Source: an uncultured bacterium
GTDB lineage: Bacteria; Bacillota_I; Bacilli_A; RFN20; CAG-826
Assembly (NCBI GenBank): GCA_949299195.1
Contig: CASFZN010000018.1
Coordinates: 352,149-416,148, forward strand
DNA: 64,000 bases
Direction of reading: 5' to 3'
Positions 4,409 to 52,731 of the stretch are shown here, in pieces (positions within the stretch are counted from its first letter, which is position 1; each line of letters opens with the position of its first letter). A program made the position numbers and the translations under genes. The notes under the pieces were generated by a model. That model was not told where the DNA came from and ran no database searches. It saw only the letters and a list, made by a program, of their open reading frames with translations.

Positions 4409-6694
4409 ATGAAAGAGATAATTAAGAAAGATTTATTTAATAGTATTGATTCTTTAACTAATTCATTAGATAAAGAATATATTTTTATAGGAGAATCTTC
4501 CTATAAAAATATTTTATTATCCTATAAAAGTAATAATCCTTCAAAGAATATAAGTTATATAGATAAGAATGAATTTATTAAAAATATTACTTTTGATTAT
4601 AGTGATAACACTTTAATTAAATATATTATTCATAACTATAACTATGATTATTTAAAAAGTAAGGAATTATTAAAACTATTAGCGCTTATAGATATTGAAG
4701 AATCTAATAAAATAGTAGGTATTAATAAAGAGATTAGAGACGTTATTAATATTAAAAAAGATTTAATAAATAAGGGATTAATAAGTAAGGAATATAATGA
4801 ATTAAGTTTAACTCATTATAATAAAGAAAATAGGAATAATATCGAAATAATTCTTTTTGAAATTAATGAATTAGATAGTGAATTTCTATCTCTTTTAAAT
4901 AGATTAAATATCGATATTTCAAAAAGAATTAACTTTATAAACTTAGACAGTGAAAATATTAATGAAGTTTTTAAAGATAAATACTTAATCTTTAAAAACA
5001 CAATTAAAGAGTTTCACTATCTATTTAGTGAAATTAAAAGAATGATTCAAAAAGAAAGAATAGATCCTTCAAAAATAGTAGTCTATATGAAGGAAGTAAA
5101 CCCTTTTTATTTAAGATATTTTGAGGAGTTATACGCCATTAAGACTAATTATAAAAAAGAGATTCCACTTTTATTTAATAGTGTATTAACTAACTTTTTG
5201 GAAGAAATTTATAGTAGTGGAAAAATTGAAAAACTCCCATTATTAGAAGAAAATAACGGACCTAAAAATGACTTTATCTTGATTCTAAATAATGTTATTG
5301 AATATTTTGAGTTAGACTCAATTAAAGATTTTAATAGTGCATTTTTATCTTTAAAAGAAATCTTAAATGAACTCACTAAAAAAGAAGAAAAAGAGAATGT
5401 TGAAACAATAAAAATCATAACTTCTTATAAATATTTAAATGATGATGAATATTTATTTGTTTTAGATTTTGTTCATAATTCAATCTATCAAGAAAACAAG
5501 GATAATAAGGTTATTACTGATATTTCTTTAGAAAAACTAAAACTTAACACTTCTTATAAAAATAACCTTATTAATCGAAGAAAAGCATTATATTTTTGTA
5601 GTTTTAACAACGTAAAAATGTTTTCAAGAAGAAAACTCCATCTTGATGACACTCTATTTGATTCCCAATTTGTCAATGAATTTAATCTAAAAGGAGAAGA
5701 AGTTCCTTTTAATACAAACGGCTTATATACCAATAAAGCTTTAGAAGCCTTAAAAACTTCAATTTTTGATGAAAAAAATTTAAATGAAAGTAAAGAAATT
5801 TTATCTTATAAAAAATACGATAAAAGCTTTAAATCGTTTAATTTTGATAAAGGTGAATCTTTTTCTTTAAGCTTAATTTCTTCCTATGATTCATGTCCTT
5901 TTAAATTTTATGTTGATAAATATTTAAAGGTAGATAAATCTGAATATGAATTTAGTGCTAAAATCGGAACTTTATTTCATGAAGTAATAGAAAAATATTT
6001 TATAAGTAGATATCAAGAAAGTATCGACAAATTATATAAAGAAACTTACTTAAAAATGGAAAAAGATTTTGATGAAAAAGAAAAGATGATTTTAAAATAT
6101 TCAATTCTTCCAAAATTTATAGAAAGCGTCGAAAAGGTATTAGAAGATTATAAACTTGATGAGATTAAGGGTTTCGAAGATGAAGTTATTCTTCAAATTC
6201 CTTATGAAGTTGATGGAAAAATTTCAACCATAAACGGAAGAGCTGATTTAAAAATTAATTATAATGACGGAAAATATTCGATAATTGATTTTAAAACCGG
6301 AAATGTTAAAAATTATAAATTTGCCGATGGCGATCGAACAAAAATTCAACTTCCTTTATACGCAAAATCTTTTATGTTAAAAGAAGAAGGTGAATCTTCA
6401 CTTAAAGAAGTTATTTATCAACCAATTCTTCAAAATGCGGTTTTTGGAGACCCTGAAATCAATCTTTCGGCTTTTAAAGCAAAATTTCAAAATGTTTCTT
6501 ATGCTAAAAAGGAATTAGAAAGTGAAATTTTAGATTCTACTGATAGAATGGTTGAAGGAATTTTACGCGATATTTCTCAAAATAAATTCTCTTTAATTCA
6601 AAATAGTGAAGGGGATGATGATTCTAATACATGTACATTCTGTTCCTATGGAGATATTTGTTATATAGATAAAATAAAGAGGAAGAAATGGTAA
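4409..6694 (+). CDS. addB: AddB/RexB-type subunit of helicase-nuclease (nuclease domain with Fe-S cysteines, no Walker A)
   Basis: C-terminal PD-(D/E)xK-like 'GRADLKI...IIDFKTG...QLPLYA'; Cys at 'SYDSCPFKF' plus 'CTFCSYGDIC' (C-x2-C-x5-C) resembling AddB Fe-S staple; directly upstream of addA. Confidence 0.7.
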   Translation: MKEIIKKDLFNSIDSLTNSLDKEYIFIGESSYKNILLSYKSNNPSKNISYIDKNEFIKNITFDYSDNTLIKYIIHNYNYDYLKSKELLKLLALIDIEESNKIVGINKEIRDVINIKKDLINKGLISKEYNELSLTHYNKENRNNIEIILFEINELDSEFLSLLNRLNIDISKRINFINLDSENINEVFKDKYLIFKNTIKEFHYLFSEIKRMIQKERIDPSKIVVYMKEVNPFYLRYFEELYAIKTNYKKEIPLLFNSVLTNFLEEIYSSGKIEKLPLLEENNGPKNDFILILNNVIEYFELDSIKDFNSAFLSLKEILNELTKKEEKENVETIKIITSYKYLNDDEYLFVLDFVHNSIYQENKDNKVITDISLEKLKLNTSYKNNLINRRKALYFCSFNNVKMFSRRKLHLDDTLFDSQFVNEFNLKGEEVPFNTNGLYTNKALEALKTSIFDEKNLNESKEILSYKKYDKSFKSFNFDKGESFSLSLISSYDSCPFKFYVDKYLKVDKSEYEFSAKIGTLFHEVIEKYFISRYQESIDKLYKETYLKMEKDFDEKEKMILKYSILPKFIESVEKVLEDYKLDEIKGFEDEVILQIPYEVDGKISTINGRADLKINYNDGKYSIIDFKTGNVKNYKFADGDRTKIQLPLYAKSFMLKEEGESSLKEVIYQPILQNAVFGDPEINLSAFKAKFQNVSYAKKELESEILDSTDRMVEGILRDISQNKFSLIQNSEGDDDSNTCTFCSYGDICYIDKIKRKKW

Positions 6695-30206: not shown

Positions 30207-30235
30207 TCTTAATCTATAATTATTTTTGTAGATAA

Positions 30236-30330
30236 AGTTATGGGGGCTTGTGATACAGGCTGAGATAAAAGTAGTTACTTTTGACCATTTAACCTGATCT
30301 AGGTAATTCTAGCGTAGGTAAAACTCTTTT
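30236..30330 (+). promoter_or_regulatory. TPP (thiamine pyrophosphate) riboswitch aptamer
   Basis: tgGGGGcttgtgataCAGGCTGAGAtaaa...ttgACCatttAACCTGATCTaGGtAATtCtAGCGTAGGtAAaa matches the THI-element consensus (CUGAGA, ACCUGAUCU, AGCGUAGG). Confidence 0.8.
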
Positions 30331-30379
30331 TTATTGGATAAAACTAATTAAATAGTAGTCCTTAAAAATAATTAAAGAA

Positions 30380-30444: not shown

Positions 30445-31569
30445 ATGATAGATGAAATTAAAAAAGAAAATGATATTACTGATAATTCTTCGACAACAGT
30501 ATCGAATAAAAAGTTTGATATTTATCGAGGAATTATAGGAATAGTTTTACTATTGGCAACTTACATATTTTTAGTTACTGATGGTTTTACGCTTTCAACT
30601 TTAAATGAAGAAGAAGTCACTCTTTCTTTATTTGATGCAATATTTGGAAATAGTGAATTAAAAATAGGATTAAATCCAATTGGATTAACTAGTTTTATTT
30701 TAATTTCTTGTGCAACTTTGTTATTTATTGTTGGATTTATTTTTAAAATAATAGGAAATAAAAAAGCATCAAACAGCTTATTTATTTCTTCATCAATTAC
30801 ATTATTTCTAGGATATATTTTCTATTTAGCAATTATTTATACATTTTATTATGTAGTTCCAGGAGCTAGTGAGATTATACCTTCTGAATATGGGATATAT
30901 TTTGTTACTCCATCAATGATAATTTATTCGGTAATTATCGCAATTTCTTTAATTATGATTTTAGCTTCTATTGAAAGAAAAGATGGCAGTAAATTTAAGG
31001 TAAAAGAGATTTCAGAATTAGCAATGATGGTTGCTTTAGCAATAGTTTTAGATCAATTTGTAAAAATTCCAATTGGTTCTACCGGAGGAAGTATTAACTT
31101 TTCCGCTTTTCCTTTAATGATATATGGGATTAGACATGGCTTTCTTAAAGGAATATTAGCTAGTTCAATCATTTTTGGAATTATTACGAATTTAATAGAT
31201 GGTTATGGTCTTTTATGTTATCCATTTGACTATTTAATTGCCTTTTTAGGATATGGGTCTAGTGGCTTATTCTATTACATTTTTAAGTCCACTATTTTTA
31301 AGAATAAATCGAGCGAAAATGACAATTTAATTTTGATTATTATCTCTTTAATTTTAGGAGCAATCACCTTATTTATTATAAGAATGATTGGTTCAACCAT
31401 GTCTTCGATGATTCTTTGGGAATATGAACTTGGCGCTGCTTTACTTTATAACATTTTATATGTTGGTCCTAGTGCCTTGGGATGTTTAGTAATTTCATTA
31501 CTTTTATCTCCTGTTATCAATATGATTAATAAAAGGCAAAAAACTTCTTATTTAGAAAAATTAGCATAA
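30445..31569 (+). CDS. TPP-riboswitch-controlled polytopic membrane protein; C-terminal half resembles an ECF-transporter S-component (ThiT-like), putative thiamine/precursor transporter
   Basis: 374 aa, about 10 TM helices; second half 'MMVALAIVLDQFVKIPIGSTGGSINFSAFPLMIYGIRHGFLKGILAS' S-component-like; directly downstream of riboswitch. Confidence 0.5.
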   Translation: MIDEIKKENDITDNSSTTVSNKKFDIYRGIIGIVLLLATYIFLVTDGFTLSTLNEEEVTLSLFDAIFGNSELKIGLNPIGLTSFILISCATLLFIVGFIFKIIGNKKASNSLFISSSITLFLGYIFYLAIIYTFYYVVPGASEIIPSEYGIYFVTPSMIIYSVIIAISLIMILASIERKDGSKFKVKEISELAMMVALAIVLDQFVKIPIGSTGGSINFSAFPLMIYGIRHGFLKGILASSIIFGIITNLIDGYGLLCYPFDYLIAFLGYGSSGLFYYIFKSTIFKNKSSENDNLILIIISLILGAITLFIIRMIGSTMSSMILWEYELGAALLYNILYVGPSALGCLVISLLLSPVINMINKRQKTSYLEKLA

Positions 31570-36289: not shown

Positions 36290-37678
36290 ATGGAAAGAGT
36301 GATGAATGTTACAAAAGAATTATTTGTGAAATTGACTCAAAATTCTTTAAAAGATGACGAGAAAGTCTTACTTGAAGGTTGGGTTAGAGGGAATAGAGAC
36401 AATGGTAAAATTGGTTTTATTGAATTTAACGATGGAACTACTTTTAAAAATATTCAACTCGTTTATGATCACGAACTTCTAAGTAAAGAAATATACGATA
36501 AATGCGCGCATTTTAAATATGCAGGAGCAATAAAAGTAGAAGGTAAAATTAAACTTACTCCAGAAAACAAACAACCTTTCGAAGTTGTTGTTATAGATGC
36601 TGAAGTTTTAGGTGATGTTGATGAAGACTATCCTTTGCAAAAGAAAAGACATAGCTTCGAATTTATGAGAGATATCGCATATTTAAGACCAAGAGCTAAT
36701 ACATTCAACGCTTTATTTAGAGTTAGAAACATCCTTGCTTATGCAATTCATAAATTTTTCCAAGAAAGAGGGTTTATGTATGTTCATACTCCACTTTTAA
36801 CAACTAACGACGCTGAAGGTGCAGGTCAAACTTTTAAGGTTTGTGAAGATTTAAAAAATCCAACTGAATTTTTTAACGCAAATACCTCTTTAACAGTTTC
36901 TGGACAACTTCACGTTGAACCTTTTGCTTTAACTTTTAGAGACACCTATACTTTTGGTCCAACATTTAGAGCAGAACATTCAAATACTTCTAGACACGCG
37001 TCAGAATTCTGGATGATTGAACCTGAAATTGCTTTCGCTGATTTAGAAGATGATATGAACTTGATGGAAGACTTCTTAAAATACATCATGTCTTATGTAT
37101 TAGAAAACTGTAAGGAAGAAATGGATTTCTTTAACACCATGATTGAAAAAGGGGTTTTAGATAAAATTCAACATGTTTTAAATTCTCCATTTAAAAGAAT
37201 GACATATACTGAAGGTATTGAAATTTTAAAAGAAGCTGTCAAAAATGGTGAAAAATTTGAATATAATCACATTGAATGGGGAATGGATCTTCAAAGCGAA
37301 CATGAAAGATATTTAACTGAAAAAGTAGTTAAAGGTCCAATGTTTTTAATTGATTATCCAAAAGATATTAAATCCTTTTATATGAAACTAAATAAAGATG
37401 GAAAAACTGTTGCAGCTTGTGACCTTTTAGTTCCTGGAGTTGGAGAAATTTGTGGTGGTTCACAAAGAGAAGACGACTATGAGAAACTAAAAGCAAGAAT
37501 GGAAAAAGAAGGAAATGATAAAACATTAGACTGGTACTTAAATTTAAGAAGATATGGCGGTTGTATCCATTCAGGTTTTGGCCTTGGATTTGATAGACTA
37601 TTGATGTATATGACTGGATTAAGTAATATTAGAGATGTACAACCATATCCTCGTACACCAGGAAGCATTAAATATTAA
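36290..37678 (+). CDS. asnS: asparagine-tRNA ligase
   Basis: class II motifs 'FRAEHSNTSRHASEFWMIEPE', 'GGSQRE', 'GFGLGFDRLLMYMTG'; 462 aa. Confidence 0.9.
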   Translation: MERVMNVTKELFVKLTQNSLKDDEKVLLEGWVRGNRDNGKIGFIEFNDGTTFKNIQLVYDHELLSKEIYDKCAHFKYAGAIKVEGKIKLTPENKQPFEVVVIDAEVLGDVDEDYPLQKKRHSFEFMRDIAYLRPRANTFNALFRVRNILAYAIHKFFQERGFMYVHTPLLTTNDAEGAGQTFKVCEDLKNPTEFFNANTSLTVSGQLHVEPFALTFRDTYTFGPTFRAEHSNTSRHASEFWMIEPEIAFADLEDDMNLMEDFLKYIMSYVLENCKEEMDFFNTMIEKGVLDKIQHVLNSPFKRMTYTEGIEILKEAVKNGEKFEYNHIEWGMDLQSEHERYLTEKVVKGPMFLIDYPKDIKSFYMKLNKDGKTVAACDLLVPGVGEICGGSQREDDYEKLKARMEKEGNDKTLDWYLNLRRYGGCIHSGFGLGFDRLLMYMTGLSNIRDVQPYPRTPGSIKY

Positions 37679-41432: not shown

Positions 41433-43570
41433 ATGAATTTAAAAACCTTACTCAACGATAAACAATACGAAGCTGTAACTTCTTCATTTAAATATAATAG
41501 AATTATAGCTGGAGCAGGAAGTGGTAAAACCCGTGTTTTAACCTACCGTCTTGCACATTTAATTAATGATAAAAATATTGATCCTTATAACCTTTTAGCA
41601 ATTACTTTTACTAATAAAGTTGCAAAAGAAATGTTAAATAGAACCGAAGAATTACTCGGAAACATCGATATTAGTAGTTTAAAAATATCTACCTTCCACT
41701 CTTTTTGTAGTTATTTTTTAAGAAACGAAATCTATCACATCAACTTTCCTAGATCTTTTGTAATTATTGATGATAATGAAAGTGAAAACATGATTTATTA
41801 TTCCTTTACTAGTTTAGGTCATGAGATTAAAAAAGGAGATACCTTAGTTAAATCCACCATTAGATTTATTGCTAAAAATAAAACTAAAGGCCTTCTTCCT
41901 AGCGATATCAAAGAAGAAGATTTAGTTAGTGAAGAAATGAAAATCATGTATGAAGCTTTTAAAGAATATGAAAAAAATAAAGTTAGAAGTTATGCTTTAG
42001 ATTTTGATGATTTACTTATTTATACCGCAATATTTTAAGAGAATTTAGTGACGTAAAAGAAAAATATAATACTCGCTTTAAAGAGATTTTAGTCGATGAA
42101 TTCCAAGATACAAACGATTTACAGTTTAAACTTTTAACTCTTTTAGTAGGAAAAGACACAGGGCTTTATGTTGTAGGAGATCCTGATCAAACTATCTATA
42201 CCTGGAGAGGCGCTAATTTAAGAGTTATTTTAGATGTAGAAAAATATTTTAGGGGCTTACAAACTTTTATTTTAGACGAAAACTATCGTTCAACTAAAAA
42301 TATTTTAACCGCTGCTAATAAGCTTATTATTCATAATGCTGAAAGGGTAAAAAAAGATTTATTTACTAAAAACGAAAGTCGAGAAGAAGTAAGCTTTTTT
42401 ACAGCCCAAACTGATTTTGAAGAAGCTAGAAAAGTCGTTCAAAAAATACGTGAATTAACTGTAAAAAACGATGCAAAATATTCGGAAATTGCCATTCTTT
42501 ATCGATCGGCATATCTTTCTCGTCCTTTCGAACAAATTTTAATGAAAGAAAGAATTCCATATCGCGTTTATTCAGGAACAAAATTCTATGATAGAAGAGA
42601 AGTTAAAGATGTTTTAGCCTATCTTTCTTTATTAACTAATCCCAAAAACGATGTAGCTTTTGAAAGAGTTTATAACGTTCCTAAAAGAGGAATTGGAGAT
42701 GTTTCGTATGCAAAATTTAAACAAGAAGCATATGAATTAAACTTAAATTTATATCAATACGCTTTAGATTTATATAAATATGATTCTGAGGTTAGTAAAA
42801 AATCTCAAAATGCCTTATCTACCTTTGTTTTAAAATTAGAAAAAGCTAATGATTTACTTGAAGGAGAACACACTTCTCAAGAATTTTCTGGCATAATGCT
42901 CGACTTTTTAAATGACATTAAATATTTTGACTATCTTCAAGAAAATGAAGAAGATGGCGATGATAGAGCTTTAAACGTCAGATCTTTAATTAGCGATATT
43001 GCTAATACAGTAACTGGAAAAAATGCGATAAGTATCGAAGAATATTTACAAAACGTTACTTTATTAACTTCTCAAGATGATATTGTTAATGATGGTGATT
43101 CAATCACTTTAATGACCTGCCATACTGCTAAGGGTTTAGAGTTTAACTATGTTTTCGTAGTTGGATTAAATAAAGATGTTTTCCCAAATTATCGTGCTCT
43201 TCAAGAAGGAAAAGAAAGAGAAGAGGAAGAAAGAAGATTAGCCTATGTTGCCTTTACTCGTGCTAGAAAAATACTCTATTTATCTTGTAATTTAGGGCAT
43301 TCATTTATTAGTGGCACCACTAATGAAGTTTCTCAATTTGTTATTGAAGCCGGATTATCGCTTAAACCTAAAAACTCCTTTATCAAGGTAGGAAAAGAAA
43401 ATTTATATTCTTTCGATTTTAATAAATTTATGGAGGAAAAGAAAAAAATCGAAGAAGAAGAGCGAAAAGAAAGAGTTATAGGAACTTCATTTAAAAATAA
43501 TATAAAATGGAGTGTAGGCGATTTGATAAATCATAAAACTTTTGGAAAAGGAAAAATCAATAAATTATAA
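41433..43570 (+). pseudogene. UvrD/PcrA-type helicase paralog (pcrA-1) disrupted by a -1 frameshift in the T4 run at 42033-42036
   Basis: N-terminal 201 aa with 'IAGAGSGKTRVLTYR', stop at 42036; frame +2 continues 'REFSDVKEKYNTRFKEILVDEFQDTN...VVGDPDQTIYTWRGAN...ENYRST...TCHTAKGLEF...LAYVAFTRARK'; colinear and about 65-70% identical to intact pcrA at 50515. Confidence 0.7.
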
Positions 43571-43658
43571 AAAGAATTTTAAAATATTTTTAACTTTCAC
43601 TATTCTTTCAATATTATTATTTATATATATACTATATTTAGTAGTAATGACAATTATA

Positions 43659-43694
43659 TCTTTAATCGGTTATACCGATTAAAGATTTTTTTTA
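43659..43694 (+). terminator. intrinsic terminator after pcrA-1
   Basis: TCTTTAATCGGTtatACCGATTAAAGA + T8. Confidence 0.7.
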
Positions 43695-43793
43695 TATAAC
43701 AGCAATAAAAATTTTTACAGTGTAAAATCACGATTGATATCGTATTTTTTTCTTAATTATCAAAAATAGTCATAAATATAAATTAAGTCTTGC

Positions 43794-43803
43794 GGGGGGG
43801 GGG
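43794..43803. repeat. poly-G(10) homopolymer tract in the putative promoter spacer of the sipW island
   Basis: gcGGGGGGGGGGct between candidate -35 TTGCGG (43790-43795) and -10 TATAGT (43814-43819), 18-nt spacer. Confidence 0.6.
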
Positions 43804-43883
43804 CTTTAAATAGTATAGTTTTAATCAAATAAAGTTATTTTTAGGCTTTTATGCAAATTTTTATGATGGGGGATTAAAATTTT

Positions 43884-44492
43884 ATGCTAAAAAGAAAACT
43901 TTTAATGACAATTTTACCAGTATTAAGTGCTGCAGTTATTGTTGGCACCGGTTTTAGTGCTTGGCACTTTGGAAATACAACAGACAGCGAAACTTTAAAT
44001 GCTAATGTTGTTGTTACTGAAAAAGTTAATCATCATATTGACCTTACAGTTAATACAGAAATGACAAGATTACTTCTTGATCAAGGCTCCACCGATGGTG
44101 TTAGAGATGAAGGAATTACTTTTACTAATGATAATCACGAAGCTAATAAAGGTGTTTTAACAATTAATCTTGCTTCTTCAAGCGCAAAAACAGACTATAC
44201 ATTAACTGTTAGAATTGATCCAGATGAAGCTTTAAATAAATATCTTGAATTTGTAGAAGATGCAACAATTGATGGTTGGGCTTGGTCTAAAGCAAGTCAA
44301 ACTTTAACTCGAGATGTTACATTAACCGATGGGAAAGCAACTGTTACTTTAGATTTAGGTGATGAAACAGACAAACATAACGCATTATTTAACTATACAG
44401 ATGTTAAACCAAGAAATTCAGATGATTATGATACAATGGTTGCAGCATTAGAAAATGCTAAAGTTGTATTTACAGTCACTGTTAGTGAATAA
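43884..44492 (+). CDS. TasA/camelysin-like secreted protein with SipW-cognate-type signal peptide (copy 1)
   Basis: N-terminus 'MLKRKLLMTILPVLSAAVIVGTGFSAWHFGN' resembles TasA 'LVGGGTWAAFND'; sipW two genes downstream; RBS tgggggatt. Confidence 0.5.
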   Translation: MLKRKLLMTILPVLSAAVIVGTGFSAWHFGNTTDSETLNANVVVTEKVNHHIDLTVNTEMTRLLLDQGSTDGVRDEGITFTNDNHEANKGVLTINLASSSAKTDYTLTVRIDPDEALNKYLEFVEDATIDGWAWSKASQTLTRDVTLTDGKATVTLDLGDETDKHNALFNYTDVKPRNSDDYDTMVAALENAKVVFTVTVSE

Positions 44493-44614
44493 TTAATATT
44501 TTTATATGGATAGAGTCTATTTCTAGGACTCTATCCATATTCTTTATTTATTAGATTTATTAAATATGAAATAAGATTTTTATCTTACTTCTTTAAGTAA
44601 CAACAAGTAGTAAT

Positions 44615-47386
44615 ATGAGTAAGTTTAAAAAAATATTAATACCTATTTTTACTTTATTAACAGCACTTACTATCTTAGTGCCTTCTTTTGCGTTATCTTA
44701 TTTCATATTTAATAAACCTGATGAAACAATTAAAGACGTAAATAACGGCCCTAATAGATATGATGATATAAAAGAAAATTATAGTGGTGAAAATAATTCT
44801 TCTAAAACATATACTATTTATTTTTTTCCTTCTACTTTATATGCTCATATCGAATATGAGCATATAATGAATAATACAAATGAATTCACTAATCCTAAAC
44901 CAGAAGAGACTTTCGGATATGTTGAATATGATATGGAAACCGAGACTTTTAGTGAAGTTAAACCTGGGAATCAAAATAATGAATATATCATGAATTCAAA
45001 CCAAAGTTATGGTGATGCTGCTTACTATAATTCAGTATCTAATAGCACGTATCAAGCAGATGAGTATTGTTTTTACAATGATGTTAAGACTTATTTGCAA
45101 AATTTTAACGATTATAATGGAAGCATACCTGAAGAATTACAACCTTATAGTGATGCTTGGAATGATTTTGGTAGGGATTATGGATTGCCTGAAGATTTTA
45201 ATAAAACTTATTCAAATGGTGATAGAACAGGCAACCATTATAAGTTTAGGAATGATCGTCTAGGATATCGGCCAAATAAAAACCCTGAAAATAATGGCGA
45301 GATTGGAATAGGCGAAGGAAGATATTTACCTATAAAAGTAACGATTAAAGATACTTTACCAATGTATGTTTATAATCATATAGTCGAATATAAGCCAATG
45401 GCTGATATGGGTGATAGTTCTTCAGGTGAAAGAGCATGGTATAATTTCTCTTTTGCAGGATGGGGTTATTTTGACGAAAGCAAAAATTTTAGTGCTCCAA
45501 AAACAACTTTCGAAGAAAACGAACAATTTAATTATGATGATAATTATGTTCAAGATTCTTTTACTTCAGGAGATTGTAATAATATTTTCGATATTTTGAA
45601 CGATTTAAGTGAATACGATCCGGACGGGGATGGAATTATAAAATTGTTTCCTATTTTTAGTAATGGGAAAAAATACGGATTAAATAATGATACGGTCCAT
45701 TTAGGTGGTAGGGATGCTTTAAAGTTAACGTATCAATTAAAAGATGGATATAGTTATGAAACAAATGAACAATATTTTTTGTATTCAACCGATAAAATAT
45801 CTTACACAGAAGACAATATTGAAGTAACTTATGCTTCGATTAATAATATTAACCTCGATTTTGATAAATACGAAAATATGAAAATACAAGGTGCCGCTTT
45901 AGGTTTAGAAGGTGCCGGCGATTGGACTGGGACTTGGAGTAATTTATTGCTTGATTCTAAATATATTATAGGTGCAAATAATAGTTCTTATGAAGTTATA
46001 AATAATTTTGGCGAAGGTTTATATAATATTTATATTTTTACTGTATCCCCAACCATACATGGTGAGTATGTTGAGGGCTATCGTAATTATGAGTCTTTTG
46101 AAAATGTGGACGCTACAAACACTGCTTTAGAAAAATATAGCAATTTTATTAGTAATGATTTGCTCTCAAATATTGTTCAAGATTATATGCTATTTAAGAC
46201 TTTAAAAAATAAAGATTTGGAGTTTATTCAATCAAATCCAGTTTCTATTGGTAAAGATAGTAAAAATGTTGTTAATGATGGATTGTATCAATATATTACT
46301 AACACTTACGTTAATTCCAAATGTGTTATCGCTATTGAAAAAATTACTGAATCTAAATTTATTCAAAGTGTTGATATTGGAAATAATATAGCATCACAAA
46401 CTGAAGGTGATAACTATGATTTAGCATCTTCAATGTTATACGTTAAAGAGCCGGTATATTTAGGAAATTCGTTTGATACTAAAAGTATTAGGTTAGGACA
46501 AGGAATAGAACAAGACCATGTTGTTATTACCGATGTTGATGCTAATCTAGTTAATAATGAATTTAATAGTATTACGAATAAAGTTGACTTAAAAGAAGAT
46601 GTTGTTTTACTTAGAAACGTTGATTTTACAAACTATTCAACATTAAGGGAAGCTGCTTTTCAAATAAGGTTATTTGAAAAGTATCAAAGCATTTTAAATT
46701 TTATTGAGACAGATGAAAGTAATTTAAAATTAAGTGGTAATAGTAGTGCACAAACTTTTGAAGCTTTAATCTATAATCCTAAGGATAATAATTTAAATGC
46801 AAGCAATATTTTCTTAGATGCTTCTTATTATTTTAATTTAGTTAATGCTGGTGAAAATATAACTTTAAATAGTGATGGTGTAACATATGATGTCGATCAA
46901 AGAGTATATGTTCCACGTCATACTTCATATTTAGGTATGTATGATTTTATGCTTTATCATAATAAAGAAAATAATACTTATAAATTATATGCATATCGTC
47001 ATTCAAATGCGACTATTAGAGTTTTTACAGAAGATCAAGAAGATAATAACAATGATGGTTACGTTGATGTAAATGATACTCAATTAATATGGCAAAGAAA
47101 TACAAATATTGGTTCATATGCCGAAATTTATGATCAAGGGACGTGTGGAGAAGCTTCCGGAGATTTAAATGGTAGTGAATCAAGTTTTGAAAATGTTATT
47201 ACTCATTATTTAAACGATAAAGAAATAGGAACTTATTATCTTAGAGATCATGTTACTGGAATTGATTTATTTGAAATAATAAAAGATGAAGAAGGTAATA
47301 TCGAATTTAATCAATTATTAACTAATTTTAGAATTCGTAAATCTTATATCTTTTATTTAACAACTGAAAAAGTATTAGGAGAATAA
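44615..47386 (+). CDS. large (923 aa) secreted/surface protein with N-terminal signal-anchor, N/Y/D-rich; contains a DxDGDG Ca-binding-like loop
   Basis: 'MSKFKKILIPIFTLLTALTILVPSFALSYF'; 'EYDPDGDGIIKLFP'; no recognisable catalytic motif. Confidence 0.5.
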   Translation: MSKFKKILIPIFTLLTALTILVPSFALSYFIFNKPDETIKDVNNGPNRYDDIKENYSGENNSSKTYTIYFFPSTLYAHIEYEHIMNNTNEFTNPKPEETFGYVEYDMETETFSEVKPGNQNNEYIMNSNQSYGDAAYYNSVSNSTYQADEYCFYNDVKTYLQNFNDYNGSIPEELQPYSDAWNDFGRDYGLPEDFNKTYSNGDRTGNHYKFRNDRLGYRPNKNPENNGEIGIGEGRYLPIKVTIKDTLPMYVYNHIVEYKPMADMGDSSSGERAWYNFSFAGWGYFDESKNFSAPKTTFEENEQFNYDDNYVQDSFTSGDCNNIFDILNDLSEYDPDGDGIIKLFPIFSNGKKYGLNNDTVHLGGRDALKLTYQLKDGYSYETNEQYFLYSTDKISYTEDNIEVTYASINNINLDFDKYENMKIQGAALGLEGAGDWTGTWSNLLLDSKYIIGANNSSYEVINNFGEGLYNIYIFTVSPTIHGEYVEGYRNYESFENVDATNTALEKYSNFISNDLLSNIVQDYMLFKTLKNKDLEFIQSNPVSIGKDSKNVVNDGLYQYITNTYVNSKCVIAIEKITESKFIQSVDIGNNIASQTEGDNYDLASSMLYVKEPVYLGNSFDTKSIRLGQGIEQDHVVITDVDANLVNNEFNSITNKVDLKEDVVLLRNVDFTNYSTLREAAFQIRLFEKYQSILNFIETDESNLKLSGNSSAQTFEALIYNPKDNNLNASNIFLDASYYFNLVNAGENITLNSDGVTYDVDQRVYVPRHTSYLGMYDFMLYHNKENNTYKLYAYRHSNATIRVFTEDQEDNNNDGYVDVNDTQLIWQRNTNIGSYAEIYDQGTCGEASGDLNGSESSFENVITHYLNDKEIGTYYLRDHVTGIDLFEIIKDEEGNIEFNQLLTNFRIRKSYIFYLTTEKVLGE

Positions 47387-47400
47387 AAAGGAGAGTAATT

Positions 47401-48345
47401 ATGGGTGGACAATCTAAATTAGTAATTATCGCTTTAATTGTTTCGATATTTGTAATTATAGGTTTAACTATAGTATTTTGTTTCTTATTCTTTTTATATT
47501 CTTTTTATAAAAGTAAACATATTAAATTTGGATTTGAGGATGAAGAATTAAATAAAGAAATTACAACAACTTTATATAAAGTAAATTCTAAAAGATTAAA
47601 GAAAAATAAATCGTTATTAAGATATAACGATATTATTAAAAACGAACATTCATTAACAACTAAATTGCATATATTCATGAATATTGTTTCTAGTGTTGTC
47701 ATTGCTATATTAACTGCAATTTTTATAACTGCACTAGTTTATAGGGTAAATAATGATAATTTATTTATCGGTAATTCTACTTATATGACTATTTTAACTT
47801 CCTCAATGGAATGTAGAAATGAAAAAAATGAATATCTTGATGAATATAATTTAGATGATCAAATCTTGCAATATTCTTTAGTTGGTGTCGAAAAAATAGA
47901 AAAAGAAGAAGATTTGAAATTATATGATATCGTAGCCTACGAATATGAAGAAATAGTTATTTTACACCGTATTGTTGCTATAAAAATAGACGAAGAAACT
48001 AATAAAACAATCTATACATTAAAAGGCGATGCTAATGAATCTTCTTTAAATTATGAAAAAGAATTGGAATTTGAAGATTTTATTGGTAAATATAATGGTT
48101 TTCAAAATTATGGATTAGGTGTAACTATAACTTACGTTAAATCTAATATTGGAATTATTGCTATTTTAAGTGCTGCTATTTTCTTATTTTTAACAACTTT
48201 TGCTGAAGATATGATCAATAAAGAATATAAGAATAGATTGTCACTTTTAGCTGATGATAAATATTTAATTGTTGATTTAAAAGAATTGGCTAAATCAAAA
48301 TACGGAAAAAAGAAAAAGGTAGAAGAAAAAGAAGATGAGAACTAA
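47401..48345 (+). CDS. sipW: type I signal peptidase of the SipW (ER/archaeal) type, with extra N-terminal TM helices
   Basis: catalytic Ser box 'ILTSSMECR', His box 'VILHRIVAI', 'LKGDANES'; TM helices at both ends; RBS aaaggagag. Confidence 0.65.
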   Translation: MGGQSKLVIIALIVSIFVIIGLTIVFCFLFFLYSFYKSKHIKFGFEDEELNKEITTTLYKVNSKRLKKNKSLLRYNDIIKNEHSLTTKLHIFMNIVSSVVIAILTAIFITALVYRVNNDNLFIGNSTYMTILTSSMECRNEKNEYLDEYNLDDQILQYSLVGVEKIEKEEDLKLYDIVAYEYEEIVILHRIVAIKIDEETNKTIYTLKGDANESSLNYEKELEFEDFIGKYNGFQNYGLGVTITYVKSNIGIIAILSAAIFLFLTTFAEDMINKEYKNRLSLLADDKYLIVDLKELAKSKYGKKKKVEEKEDEN

Positions 48346-49027
48346 AAGATTTTTAACATTTTTCACTATTTTAAGTGCTATTGCTTCTATTTCGATAATT
48401 GGAACGGGTTTTGGAGCCTGGTATTTTGGTTCATCTTCTGGAAGTAAAGAAAATAATGTTAATGTTGTAATTAACGATGCTTATGAATTTTGTGATTATA
48501 AAATATATTACCCAAATATTTATTATATTGAATCGAATTTAGAAAATTTATCTACTTATGGTGGGCTTGTTTTTTATAATACAGACGAAACTATATTTAA
48601 AGTAGAAGGAGAAGGAAGCGGAGAATTAAATTACACCTTAACTAGTTCGGTAATGATTTCTTTTAATCTAAAAAGTTCTGCTATAGTCGATGTAGCTTCT
48701 AAAGATGATGCCTATTTTGATGCTTTACCTGATCCAAGTAATTTTAGAGTTAAATTAAACGTATCTTTAAGCGGTTATTTAGCCAATTGGTTTACCTATA
48801 CAGGTAAAGAAGATTATATTTTTGAATTTCAAAAAGGCAATGCTTATGAAATTACATCGCATTTAGATTATATTTGTTCTAACTGGTTGAATTTAAATGA
48901 TAAATTTGAATTAAAAGAAGATTCTCAGATTACTAATGAAGATGGCATTATTGATTTAAGTAAGATTAAAGATATAGAAGATTTTGGTAAAGTTAATCTA
49001 ACATTTACTTTTATTTCAAATTTATAA
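48335..49027 (+). CDS. TasA/camelysin-like secreted protein with SipW-cognate-type signal peptide (copy 2)
   Basis: 'MRTKRFLTFFTILSAIASISIIGTGFGAWYFGSSSG' shares the GTGFxAW(H/Y)FG motif with 43884 gene; overlaps sipW stop. Confidence 0.5.
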   Translation: MRTKRFLTFFTILSAIASISIIGTGFGAWYFGSSSGSKENNVNVVINDAYEFCDYKIYYPNIYYIESNLENLSTYGGLVFYNTDETIFKVEGEGSGELNYTLTSSVMISFNLKSSAIVDVASKDDAYFDALPDPSNFRVKLNVSLSGYLANWFTYTGKEDYIFEFQKGNAYEITSHLDYICSNWLNLNDKFELKEDSQITNEDGIIDLSKIKDIEDFGKVNLTFTFISNL

Positions 49028-49028
49028 T

Positions 49029-50282
49029 TTATAAATCTAAAGGATTATCTTTAAGTAAAAAATCAAATAAATTTAATATTAAATAATTATCTTCATTATA
49101 TGAAGTTAAATAACCTTGTTTTACTATTAATATTTTTTTAGCTCCATTATCTAAATATTTAAATGGACGCAGTTCTTGCTCCAATTTATCTTTATTAGTT
49201 GCATCTAGTGAAACTTGAATGTAATAGGTTTTATTATTCTTTTTAGCTTCGAAATCAATTTCTAATTCTTTTCTAAAACTTTTCTGATTTTTATCTTTTT
49301 GATTAATGATAATACTACCTAAATTAACTTCATAACCTTGAATTATTAATTCGTTATAAATTAGATTTTCAAGTAAATGCGTTTCTTCTAATTGATTAAA
49401 ATTTAAAATAGCATTTCTAATTCCTAAATCTTTAAAATAATATTTTTTATTCGAATTAATGAATTTTTTGCCTTTTAAATCTTTACGAATAATTTTTTCT
49501 ATTAAAAAAGAATCTTCCAAAGTATCAATATATTTTTCTATAAGATAAGTTGATATTTTTTTGTTTTTTAAACTCTTAAAAGTGTTAGAAATTTTTAAAG
49601 CTGAAAATCTAGACCCGATTGAAGAAGAAAGAACAAGCACTAATTCGTTAAAATCAATTTTATTTCTAATATTATTTTTTATTATTAAATCTTTTAAATA
49701 AGTTTCTTTATAAACGCTTATTAAATATTCTTTTTTATCATTTTCATTATTAAATTCAATTAATTTTGGGAGCCCACCATAAGTTATGTAATCTTTATAA
49801 GCATCTTCTAATTTTTGATGAGAATTCTTATAGAATTCTTTAAAAGATAATGGGTAAATTTTAATTTCGACACCTCTATCATTAAACTCGGTTAAGATAT
49901 CTTTTGAAAGAAATTTTGCATTGCTGCCTGATACAAAAACATTAAGATTAGAAATGTGATAAAAACCTAATAAAACTGAAGTAAAATTATCTACTAATTG
50001 AATTTCATCGAGTATTAAATAATAAATTAGATTATCTTTAATATTATTTAATACAAAATTATATAAATTATCTGAGTTTAAGAGATTTTTATTCTTATAA
50101 TCATCAAATTCTATTCTAATGATATGGTCTTGAAAGATACCACTTTTAATTAAGTAGTTATAAAAGAGTTCGTTTAATAATGTAGATTTTCCTGACCTTC
50201 TTAAACCTGTAACTATTTTAATTCTATTATCGTTAATTTTACTTATTATTTTTTCTAAATAATTATCACGATTAAATATCAT
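49029..50282 (-). CDS. AAA+ ATPase of AAA_14/DUF4143 family (copy 2); start revised to ATG with AAGGA RBS
   Basis: 'IVTGLRRSGKSTLL' Walker A, 'YLILDEIQL' Walker B; DUF4143-like C-terminal region; ORF-track N-terminal extension (to 50393) is hydrophobic junk overlapping palindromic sites. Confidence 0.65.
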   Translation of the reverse strand: MIFNRDNYLEKIISKINDNRIKIVTGLRRSGKSTLLNELFYNYLIKSGIFQDHIIRIEFDDYKNKNLLNSDNLYNFVLNNIKDNLIYYLILDEIQLVDNFTSVLLGFYHISNLNVFVSGSNAKFLSKDILTEFNDRGVEIKIYPLSFKEFYKNSHQKLEDAYKDYITYGGLPKLIEFNNENDKKEYLISVYKETYLKDLIIKNNIRNKIDFNELVLVLSSSIGSRFSALKISNTFKSLKNKKISTYLIEKYIDTLEDSFLIEKIIRKDLKGKKFINSNKKYYFKDLGIRNAILNFNQLEETHLLENLIYNELIIQGYEVNLGSIIINQKDKNQKSFRKELEIDFEAKKNNKTYYIQVSLDATNKDKLEQELRPFKYLDNGAKKILIVKQGYLTSYNEDNYLILNLFDFLLKDNPLDL

Positions 50283-50303
50283 ATATGATCCTTTTTTATA
50301 ATA

Positions 50304-50317
50304 TTTGCGTCTATACG
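50304..50317. promoter_or_regulatory. 14-bp near-palindrome TGCGTCTATACGCA (operator-like), site 1
   Basis: in divergent intergenic region between DUF4143 ATPase and pcrA. Confidence 0.35.
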
Positions 50318-50379
50318 CATTTTTTCTAAAAATATTATACAATATATAGACTAAAATAAAAAGTATTTTTAAAATTTTT

Positions 50380-50393
50380 GCGTATATACGCAT
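50380..50393. promoter_or_regulatory. 14-bp perfect palindrome TGCGTATATACGCA (operator-like), site 2
   Basis: 76 bp from site 1 (centre to centre), same intergenic region. Confidence 0.35.
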
Positions 50394-50514
50394 TTATTTT
50401 AAAAACCATTAATTATTAATATAAAATAAGATAACTTTTTATTACTAAATTTATACTAAAAAAGTTATTAGATTTAATATAAATAACAACCTAAATTTGA
50501 TAAAATATTTAGGT

Positions 50515-52731
50515 ATGAATTTTGAACGAGAACTAAATGATAAACAATATCTTGCAGTAACAACGAAAGAAAAATATAACCGTATAATTGCTGGTGCAGG
50601 TAGTGGAAAAACTAGAGTATTAACATATCGATTGGCCTATTTATTAGAAAAAAGAAATATTGACCCATTTAATCTTTTAGCGATTACTTTTACAAATAAA
50701 GCTGCTAAAGAGATGAAAAATAGAACAATTGATTTATTACCAACTTATAATTTAAAAAACTTACAGATTTCAACTTTTCATTCTTTCTGTAATTATTTAT
50801 TAAGAAGAGAAATTAAAGTTTTGGGATTTCCACAATCTTTTTCGATTTTAGATGAAAGCGATACCGAATTATTATTAAAAAATATTGCCGAAGAGCTAGG
50901 ATATGAAAAAAACGGACCAACTTTTGATTATGCTTTAAAATTTATAAGTGCAAGCAAAACAAAAGGGAAACTACCTGGTGATATAAAGGAAGAATTTTTG
51001 AATGATTTATCAAAAAAAGCTTTAACAATGTTTAAAGAATATGAAAAAAGAAAGAACGAACAATTCTCTTTAGATTTTGATGATTTACTCATATATACAG
51101 TACTGATTTTATCTTCTTACCCTAATATAAAAGAAAAATATAATAATCGATTTAAAGAAATCTTGGTTGATGAATTTCAAGATACAAATGATATTCAATT
51201 TAAATTATTAACTTTACTTGCTGGAGAAAATACATCTATTTATGTAGTTGGTGATCCTGATCAAACAATTTATACTTGGAGAGGAGCTAATCAAAAAGTT
51301 ATTTTAGATTTTGATAAATATTTTTCTCCGCTTAACACAATAATATTAAACGAAAATTATCGTTCAACAAGCGCTATTTTAAATGTTGCAAATACTTTGA
51401 TTGCTAAAAATGTCGAAAGGGTAAAAAAAGATTTATTTACAAATAATTCTAAAGGTGTTGATGTAATTTGCCATGAAGAATTTTCTGATCAAGAAGAAGC
51501 TAGGTGGGTAGTAAAGAAAATAAACGATTTAAAAAAGATTAAAAACGTAAAATTAAAAGATATCGTTATTTTATATAGAAGTTCATATATTTCAAAAACA
51601 TTTGAAAAAGTCTTGATGGAAAATAGAATTTCTTATCGAGTATATGGCGGGCTTAAATTCTATGATAGAAAAGAAATTAAAGATTCTTTGGCTTATTTTT
51701 ATTTATTATTAAATGATTTAGATGACATTTCCTTTTTAAGAATCGTAAATGTTCCTCGTAGAAGTATAGGAGATGTATCATTATCAACGCTCAAAAAAGA
51801 AGCTAGAAATGAAAATTTATCATTATATAAATATTCTAAAGATATAGATAAATATAATTCATTACTTTCGCCACGTGTTAAAAACTCGCTGTTTAATTTA
51901 GTGCAAATTATTGAAGAATATAAAATAAAAGTTAATGATAAAAATATATCTTATTCAGAAGTCTTAGATGCTTATTTAAAAAAGCTTGGCTATTATGATT
52001 ATTTAATTAATGATGATGATTCGGACGGGGAAAGAATTGCTAACGTTAAAACATTAATTGATGATATTCGAACTTATTTAAAAGAAAATCCTGAATCTTC
52101 TTTAGATGAATATATGCAAAATATTACTTTATTAACTTCTCAAGATGCGATAATTGATAACGAAAACACTTTAACTTTAATGACTGTACATACAGCAAAA
52201 GGTTTAGAGTTTGATTATGTTTTTGTTGTTGGGTTTGAAGATACAGTGTTCCCTTCTTATAAATCTGTTTCTGAAAACGGCAATAAAGGATTAGAAGAAG
52301 AAAGAAGGCTTGCCTATGTTGCTTTTACAAGGGCTAAAAAAGAATTATATATAACTTATAATAAGGGATATTCTTATATTGCAAAAACTTCACACATTCC
52401 TTCAAGATTTATTAAAGAATCTGGAATATATAGCATTGATTCAAGTTTTGAAAGAGATTTAAAACGTTATGATTCTTCATCAACTGTTTATAAAATTAAT
52501 TTTAATAGCAAAGAATCTTCTAGAAGAGTAAGTGAAGGAAGAAATTCAACTATTATTTCTTATCAAGTTAATAAAAATAATAATTGGGCGGTAGGCGATA
52601 ATTTAACTCATGATGCTTTTGGAGAAGGAAAAGTAATCGGTACTGATGGAGACGTCATTATTGTTGATTTTGCAAATTTCGGTGTTAAAAAAATGCTGGC
52701 TACACATCATATGTTGCATAAAAAGGAATAA
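50515..52731 (+). CDS. pcrA: ATP-dependent DNA helicase PcrA (intact)
   Basis: 'IAGAGSGKTRVLTYR', 'VDEFQDTND', 'VVGDPDQTIYTWRGA', 'ENYRST', 'TVHTAKGLEF', 'LAYVAFTRAKK'; followed by ligA as in Bacillus; start chosen by alignment with paralog (MNFERELNDKQY). Confidence 0.9.
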   Translation: MNFERELNDKQYLAVTTKEKYNRIIAGAGSGKTRVLTYRLAYLLEKRNIDPFNLLAITFTNKAAKEMKNRTIDLLPTYNLKNLQISTFHSFCNYLLRREIKVLGFPQSFSILDESDTELLLKNIAEELGYEKNGPTFDYALKFISASKTKGKLPGDIKEEFLNDLSKKALTMFKEYEKRKNEQFSLDFDDLLIYTVLILSSYPNIKEKYNNRFKEILVDEFQDTNDIQFKLLTLLAGENTSIYVVGDPDQTIYTWRGANQKVILDFDKYFSPLNTIILNENYRSTSAILNVANTLIAKNVERVKKDLFTNNSKGVDVICHEEFSDQEEARWVVKKINDLKKIKNVKLKDIVILYRSSYISKTFEKVLMENRISYRVYGGLKFYDRKEIKDSLAYFYLLLNDLDDISFLRIVNVPRRSIGDVSLSTLKKEARNENLSLYKYSKDIDKYNSLLSPRVKNSLFNLVQIIEEYKIKVNDKNISYSEVLDAYLKKLGYYDYLINDDDSDGERIANVKTLIDDIRTYLKENPESSLDEYMQNITLLTSQDAIIDNENTLTLMTVHTAKGLEFDYVFVVGFEDTVFPSYKSVSENGNKGLEEERRLAYVAFTRAKKELYITYNKGYSYIAKTSHIPSRFIKESGIYSIDSSFERDLKRYDSSSTVYKINFNSKESSRRVSEGRNSTIISYQVNKNNNWAVGDNLTHDAFGEGKVIGTDGDVIIVDFANFGVKKMLATHHMLHKKE

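Follow-up and report, generated by a model that had tools for sequence, protein, structure and literature searches.

The window, by which the whole 64-kb stretch of DNA analysed here is meant, has a GC content of 26.8%. A run of ten G (G10) lies in one of its intergenic regions, and four co-oriented genes, A to D, are found downstream of the run (Table 1). The signal peptides of genes A, B and D are related: each of them has a hydrophobic stretch, which is followed by GTGFSAWHF, VPSFALSYF and GTGFGAWYF, respectively. In an alignment of 15 homologues, 24 of the first 29 residues of gene A were invariant and the other five were nearly so.

Table 1. Features of the operon and of its upstream region (positions are those of the window)
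Feature	Position	Strand	Remarks
uvrD/pcrA-like paralogue, frameshifted	41433-42038 + 42542-43570		upstream of the operon
Terminator-like hairpin	43658-43686	+	13-bp perfect stem, 3-nt loop, T run; ends the upstream transcription unit
-35-like box TTGCGG	43790-43795	+	TTGCGG in 28 of 30 orthologous promoters
G10 homopolymer	43794-43803	+	proposed slippage-prone element; direct reading of the sequence
Promoter spacer	43796-43813	+	18 nt in the window; G9 would give 17 nt
-10-like box TATAGT	43814-43819	+	5/6 matches to TATAAT; aligns with TAAAAT, TAGACT and TATAAA of relatives
Ribosome-binding site GGGGGA	43868-43873	+	10 nt before the ATG; GGGAGA or GGAGA there in relatives
Gene A	43884-44492	+	202 aa, secreted beta-sandwich protein, first operon gene
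Signal-peptide region of gene A	43884-43972	+	first ~29-30 residues (MLKRKLLMTILPVLSAAVIVGTGFSAWHF); homologue alignment
Terminator-like hairpin after gene A	44504-44540	+	15-pair stem, T-rich tail; scan
Gene B	44615-47386	+	923 aa, secreted, related N-terminal signal (…VPSFALSYF…), without family match
Gene C	47401-48345	+	314 aa, ER/archaeal-type (SipW-like, S26B) signal peptidase I, extra transmembrane segments
Gene D	48335-49027	+	230 aa, secreted, gene A-type signal motif (IIGTGFGAWYF)

Twenty-two relatives of gene A were detectable in a set of 5.8 billion proteins, and an exhaustive search gave 530 representative clusters; no annotation was found among these 22 relatives and 530 clusters. 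When JGI metagenomes were scanned with the alignment of gene A, no relative was obtained, and thus no additional tract length came from that source. Gene A had no family match in Pfam or NCBIfam and no match among the PDB sequences, a profile search included. Its assignment as TasA or camelysin (Peptidase_M73) was rejected, since no match to a family, to a PDB sequence or to the TasA fold was obtained. The gene A family with its 530 representative clusters is probably surface-exposed.

The Pfam search with gene C gave no hit, and its score against NCBIfam TIGR02228 (38.2 bits, E 1.3e-9) is under the curated cut-off of 51.85. The boxes TSSME, LHRIV and KGDAN, which contain the serine, the histidine and the GDxN motif, were invariant in seven homologues. 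The seven-homologue profile matched human SEC11C (E 1.1e-5) and SEC11A (E 0.008) with the catalytic boxes aligned. Judged by these alignments, the designation of gene C as a divergent SipW-like signal peptidase with extra transmembrane segments is justified, and the sipW label of the original prediction is supported at the profile level.

It is possible that the hairpin at 44504-44540 is a partial terminator, which would set A in excess over B to D. At the equivalent place in one relative (L006), the scan did not call a hairpin. At the other end of the operon, an AAA_14/DUF4143 ATPase gene (49029-50393, minus strand) converges on it. This gene encodes 454 aa in the window and 417 aa in L002, one of three contigs (L002-L004) of the nearest relative.

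The sequences of the operon were compared with those of L002. Gene A has 19 differences, of which 18 are non-synonymous and one is synonymous. Gene B has 20 non-synonymous and five synonymous differences, gene D has nine and three, and peptidase gene C has one of each kind. Between lineages, identity is 31-42% for A, B and D and 65% for C. The differences of A, B and D (43884-49027 against L002) suggest diversifying selection or recombination acting on the secreted proteins. A constant signal for export and processing together with a variable exposed body and a conserved peptidase is the pattern that surface structures typically show when selection diversifies them, and contingency loci usually carry structures of this kind.

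The operon had also been called an island. This label is unsupported, because relatives keep the operon beside a tRNA-synthetase gene and a gene of 77 aa. What looks like the inserted part in the window lineage is the upstream uvrD-like block, not the operon. Relatives have the 77-aa gene intact, with the tRNA-synthetase (or a WYL-like) gene on one side of it and the operon on the other. In the window lineage, the end of the uvrD-like gene stands in place of the 5' part of the 77-aa gene, and a 46-aa ORF with a TTG start (43542-43682) is the C-terminal membrane half of this conserved protein (MENEVKKRKKN…FLTFVILSILLFIYILYLVVMAF…). The tRNA-synthetase gene of the window (36290-37678) is about 6 kb off, which suggests an insertion at roughly 38-43.5 kb. 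The uvrD/pcrA-like gene itself (41433-43570) is split in the window into 201 and 342 aa by a 1-nt deletion, CCC to CC, near 42025. It has another split without an indel in L002 (419 and 289 aa) and in L004, where it is cut by the contig end, and it is intact in L003 with 712 aa. The paralogue is thus decaying independently in close strains. A full-length PcrA-like gene is present at 50497-52731.

Two further observations concern the window as a whole. A TPP riboswitch (Rfam RF00059, 67.8 bits) was found at 30230-30338, upstream of an ORF at 30445-31569. The genetic code is the standard one with TGG as Trp. Code 4 (Mycoplasma) was rejected, since 103 codons for Trp are TGG and every in-frame TGA lies either ahead of a true start or within a spurious ORF. 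The stops of all 40 long ORFs are TAA in 36, TAG in four and TGA in none, and TGA seems to be almost unused in the window as a stop or a sense codon.

The G tract and its putative promoter elements

The sequence at 43790-43819 is TTGCGGGGGGGGGGCTTTAAATAGTATAGT. It consists of TTGC (43790-43793), the ten G, CTTTAAATAG and TATAGT. The position and the letters of G10 given in the original prediction were confirmed in the window, and its claim that such a run is highly improbable at about 27% GC was borne out. G10 is the sole G/C run of at least seven in the 64-kb window, and the runners-up are four G5 and one C6. In an independent-base model with the base counts of the window, about 3x10^-4 G10/C10 runs are expected per window. 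In 100 dinucleotide-preserving shuffles, the mean number of G8 words was 0.12, and three overlapping G8 matches, which equal one G10, were reached in one of the 100. At least seven G/C is the cut-off for phase-variable tracts (PMC6321876), and G10 exceeds this cut-off for a slippage-capable simple-sequence repeat. The possibility of an assembly artefact, which had been raised together with the prediction, was checked with the relatives. At least 17 more contigs, which stem from several assembly projects unrelated to each other, carry TTGC-G(n) at the corresponding position. Therefore, the tract is not an artefact of assembly.

Two other kinds of switch were considered for the tract region and rejected. 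The only ORF that spans the tract is a 22-aa ORF with a TTG start on the minus strand. It was judged spurious, and a translational switch by a tract within a small ORF was discarded with it. An invertible promoter was discarded because the flanking inverted repeats are no better than chance matches in AT-rich DNA.

The terminator-like hairpin upstream of the operon is strong, and thus the operon needs its own promoter. The predicted TTGCGG and TATAGT boxes with a spacer of 18 nt are present, and both boxes are conserved among relatives. The first gene was predicted to lie about 65 nt further on, and the ATG of gene A (43884) indeed follows 64 nt after the last base of the -10 box. The final two G of the -35 box are also the first two G of the tract, so that slippage leaves the -35 box unchanged. 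TTGCGG matches TTGACA at three of six positions only, and for this reason TTGCGG-N18-TATAGT is not called by a simple sigma-70 scan. The scan called TTTACA-N18-TATCGT at 43714-43743 in the same intergenic region instead.

Spacer and tract length among relatives

Thirty-four related loci were fetched. The comparison set is composed of the window and the 29 loci in which the upstream region is present along with an orthologous promoter (n = 30). The loci come from independent metagenome assemblies, and the deposited MAGs of the relatives, with 24-28% GC, bear the name 'uncultured Bacilli bacterium'. All of the 30 promoters share one layout, namely a TTG(C)GG-type box, a G-rich stretch and a -10 hexamer. 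The two exceptions to TTGCGG are TTGTCG and TTGCTG, and the -10 hexamers are TATAGT, TAAAAT, TAGACT, TATAAA or CAGACT. Each lineage keeps a constant distance between its -10 box and the ATG, which amounts to 64 nt in that of the window and to 44-47 nt in the others. The promoter core is conserved despite a gene A identity of only 35-40% between lineages. Outside the core, the intergenic sequence of the window lineage is not alignable with that of the other lineages.

The tracts were classified as interrupted when the longest run was at most 5 G and as uninterrupted when it was at least 8 G. Thirteen loci have interrupted tracts. Their spacer is 17 nt in 12, which carry six distinct alleles including GGGGTGGGGTG, GGGTGGGGGCG, GGTGGGTGGGT and TGAGTGGAGGT, and 16 nt in one (L033), which is a distinct strain and not a clonal variant. 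The other 17 loci have uninterrupted tracts, and their spacer is 17 nt (G9) in eight, 18 nt (G10) in seven and 19 nt (G4TG8) in two. The 17-nt spacing in 12 of the 13 non-slippery loci indicates that selection keeps the sigma-70 optimum where slipping is impossible. The comparison marks TTGCGG-N17-TAnAnT as the putative selected geometry. The view that the boxes would be a real promoter, the spacing of which wanders only where the tract is slippery, is supported by these alignments.

The 19-nt spacer belongs to the lineage of L017 and L028. Here G4-T-G8 is found upstream of gene A in both fetched contigs, the flanks of which are identical, and the spacer is two steps off the optimum, which might make it a stable OFF state. 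The observation covers these two contigs, and four more contigs with the same protein lie outside it.

Homopolymers of other kinds were seen in three more loci. In L019, a more distant relative, a G10 (2165-2174) lies inside the 3' end of an ORF for a 309-aa OmpR-like regulator, where it encodes …PEGGGY…. TATAAA adjoins this run directly, and gene A follows 190 nt downstream, a geometry unlike that of a spacer tract. The run is possibly a C-terminal switch of the regulator. In L020, a poly-T of about 15-16 T, counted by eye at ~5880-5900, takes the place of the G tract and precedes gene A by about 110 nt. It could be a homopolymer switch of another kind. In L021 (5940-5975), TTGACA-CGGC-G9-TGTTT-TTAAAT is located upstream of a distant paralogous operon, and here a promoter close to the consensus contains G9 in its spacer. 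This operon encodes two proteins like A, one like B and a peptidase that ends in a long acidic extension fused to it.

Tract length was also compared between close relatives. Length differences were read from consensus assemblies and not from reads, and some of the contigs, according to their names, have a coverage of 3-14x. In a second lineage, the consensus of L006 (G9) shows no mismatch to that of L007 (G10) in 10,929 flanking bases and none to that of L008 (G10) in 10,243. Tract length is the sole difference of L006 from L007 and L008, which represent the same clone in different samples. Both lengths appear on slightly different backgrounds as well: L009 has G9 with nine SNPs and L013 has G10 with two SNPs, and further backgrounds are those of L014 and L035 (G10) and of L018 (G9). 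Together, the eleven assemblies of this lineage comprise five G9 and six G10. As for the window lineage, the three contigs of the nearest relative (L002-L004) have G9 against the G10 of the window, and the uvrD-like gene next door is 99.4-99.6% identical between these contigs and the window. The predicted gain or loss of one G with a shift of the spacer is thus seen as G9 (17 nt) against G10 (18 nt) between otherwise identical assemblies. Two contigs begin past the tract, L015 by one base and L005 by 31 nt. These starts fit a branching of the assembly graph at the tract.

Alternative readings and proposed mechanism

Poly-G is error-prone in Illumina data. The tract could be real and of fixed length, and the G9/G10 differences could be homopolymer errors of sequencing or assembly without any switching. 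The low coverage of some contigs (3-14x) is in keeping with such errors. The clonal flanks offer no homopolymer of at least 8 nt by which such errors could be gauged internally, their longest runs being six A/T runs of 7 nt. However, rare consensus errors would not be expected to give the near 50:50 split of five G9 and six G10 in eleven assemblies. ENA and Logan contigs that apparently derive from the same data agree in tract length (L022/L023, L026/L027, L031/L032, and L002 with L003/L004). The start of L015 one base after the tract is what graph branching predicts, and the conservation of the tract at about 25% GC would be left unexplained by errors. A fixed tract length is therefore considered improbable.

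The tract could also be hypermutable while the operon is transcribed from elsewhere, for example from TTTACA-N18-TATCGT at 43714-43743. It would then be a part of the leader and either neutral or active at the RNA level. The scan prefers this upstream site, which has nine of 12 matches and a TG, and other lineages have a partly conserved block some 75 nt ahead of the tract. However, the -10 box of the upstream candidate is not conserved between lineages. TTGCGG and TAnAnT are conserved in the non-slippery alleles together with an exact spacing of 17 nt, and a leader needs no such spacing. Transcription from another promoter is judged about as improbable as the errors above.

The least probable by a small margin of the three is that the G-rich stretch is kept for the binding of a regulator, or for promoter melting or structure, with length change as tolerated noise: interrupted alleles are still G-rich at about 25% GC and in some relatives genes resembling regulators, with a faint WYL match or an OmpR-like product, lie upstream of the operon, but the length of the stretch is conserved and its detailed sequence is not, one T-to-G change (G4TG4 to G9 with the same spacing) favours a repeated gain and loss of slipperiness over a fixed site, and the window has no such regulator gene beside the operon.

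The reading that we prefer, with a probability of about 0.72, is that G10 is a slippage-prone repeat in the spacer of a sigma-70-type promoter and that it switches the SipW-type secretion operon. The sequence-level parts of this promoter-spacer slippage, which the original prediction had proposed, held against the relatives: the boxes are conserved, the 17-nt rule is followed and G9 and G10 toggle. Points against the reading are the weak -35 box together with the other site that the scan called, the 19-nt spacer of L017 and L028, and the deviating position of G10 in L019. TTGCGG-N17/18-TATAGT would be the promoter that the operon actually uses. By slipped-strand mispairing in replication, the tract would gain or lose one G and the spacer would shift by one base. 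The distance between the -35 and -10 boxes and their rotational phasing would be altered. By analogy with porA, fetA and vlp, one base of spacing is expected to alter expression. G9 with its 17 nt would be optimal and give full strength, G10 with 18 nt would give reduced strength, and longer or shorter tracts would be worse. The 18-nt allele of the window would presumably be weaker or OFF. In most cases, one more base in a 17-nt spacer tunes a promoter but does not shut it off, so that the tract may work as a volume control and not as a switch between ON and OFF. Gene A would be the most direct target of the switch because it is the first gene of the operon. Switching would presumably be frequent and reversible within the population. 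The population would always hold cells with different levels of the secreted, fast-evolving A, B and D. A single T-to-G change would turn the locked G4TG4 into the slippery G9 with the spacing kept, and the reverse change would lock it again. Such single T/G changes would account for the mix of locked and slippery alleles among relatives.

A more far-reaching and tentative idea is that these uncultured Mollicutes-like Bacilli make a surface fibre or pilus of a kind not described before from the products of the operon. The SipW-type peptidase would process it, its subunits would be under diversifying selection, and the promoter would be an evolvable contingency switch that was repeatedly locked at 17 nt by T interruptions and unlocked by T-to-G changes. 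The conserved signal peptide and the beta-sandwich subunit, which is faintly like donor-strand pilins, hint weakly at a fibre, and we regard the idea as somewhat unlikely. If it were true, one and the same promoter would exist among the relatives in a natural set of alleles, some of them locked ON and others phase-variable.

Comparison with known systems and significance

As cited in PMC5320596, the poly-G of porA in Neisseria meningitidis (van der Ende 1995) and the poly-C of fetA in Neisseria (Carson 2000) lie between the -35 and -10 boxes. The present locus is similar to them in having a G/C homopolymer of about 9-14 nt in the spacer and a length that varies among strains; in these surface-protein genes, one-base slippage changes the -35/-10 spacing and with it the level of transcription. 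On the other hand, the present host is an uncultured low-GC bacterium of the Bacilli class and not a proteobacterium, and the effect is predicted from sequence. The target is a SipW-type secreted-protein operon instead of an outer-membrane porin or receptor. Besides, naturally 'locked' interrupted alleles of 17 nt occur among the relatives of the present promoter.

The poly-A of vlp in M. hyorhinis (Citti & Wise 1995) and the TA repeat of Vmm in M. mycoides (Persson 2002) are located in promoter spacers, as cited in PMC10502178. The very low-GC, Mollicutes-related background and a repeat in the promoter region of genes for variable surface proteins, presumed ones in the present case, are shared with the present locus, and ON/OFF switching by indels is described there for vlp and Vmm. 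In contrast to these A or TA repeats, the present tract is poly-G, which is far more conspicuous at 27% GC. Unlike the lipoproteins of vlp, which are encoded by a multigene family, the present proteins come from one operon that includes a signal peptidase gene, and the organism uses the standard code.

In Bifidobacterium breve, slippage of a G-tract controls the production of surface fibres (PMC9187656). The sortase-dependent pilus clusters of this species resemble the present case in that the G-tract belongs to a Gram-positive gut commensal and is conserved across relatives (PMC9187656). The tract of B. breve is intragenic and acts by a translational frameshift (PMC9187656), whereas the present one is intergenic and would act on promoter spacing. 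In Helicobacter pylori, sabA has a T-tract next to the -35 box, which was described as a 'rheostat' (PMC4081817). A homopolymer at or near the promoter is common to both loci, and the graded expression of a surface protein is that of sabA (PMC4081817). The sabA tract is upstream of the -35 box and concerns the DNA geometry relative to the alpha subunit of RNA polymerase, whereas the present tract is within the spacer. The poly-G tracts of tpr in Treponema pallidum are also promoter-near homopolymers with graded expression of surface proteins.

The gene content resembles that of tapA-sipW-tasA in Bacillus subtilis, in which, according to PMC10269814, a dedicated ER/archaeal-type peptidase is encoded with its secreted substrates and the substrates share an unusual aromatic-rich cleavage region. 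The likeness does not extend to gene A, since neither its sequence nor its fold revealed homology to TasA/camelysin. In B. subtilis, tapA-sipW-tasA is controlled by SinR/SlrR and is not known to be controlled by a repeat.

In its mechanism, the locus most likely belongs to the class of porA, fetA and vlp, the sequence-level defining features of which are all present. Promoter-spacer homopolymer switches are textbook knowledge for pathogens of Neisseria, Haemophilus and Mycoplasma. To our knowledge, they are hardly documented in uncultured commensal bacteria of the Bacilli class or in SipW-type operons. If the switch is confirmed, metagenome assemblies alone would be able to reveal such switches through the contrast of clonal flanks with a variable tract. 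The alleles of the relatives (slippery G9/G10, locked 17 nt and expanded 19 nt) would form an unusually clear natural series for studying how single point mutations turn fixed promoters into phase-variable ones. Finally, an uncultivated low-GC lineage with small genomes would be found to apply the logic of contingency loci to a set of fast-evolving secreted or surface proteins, on which the presumed pressure would be immune or phage.
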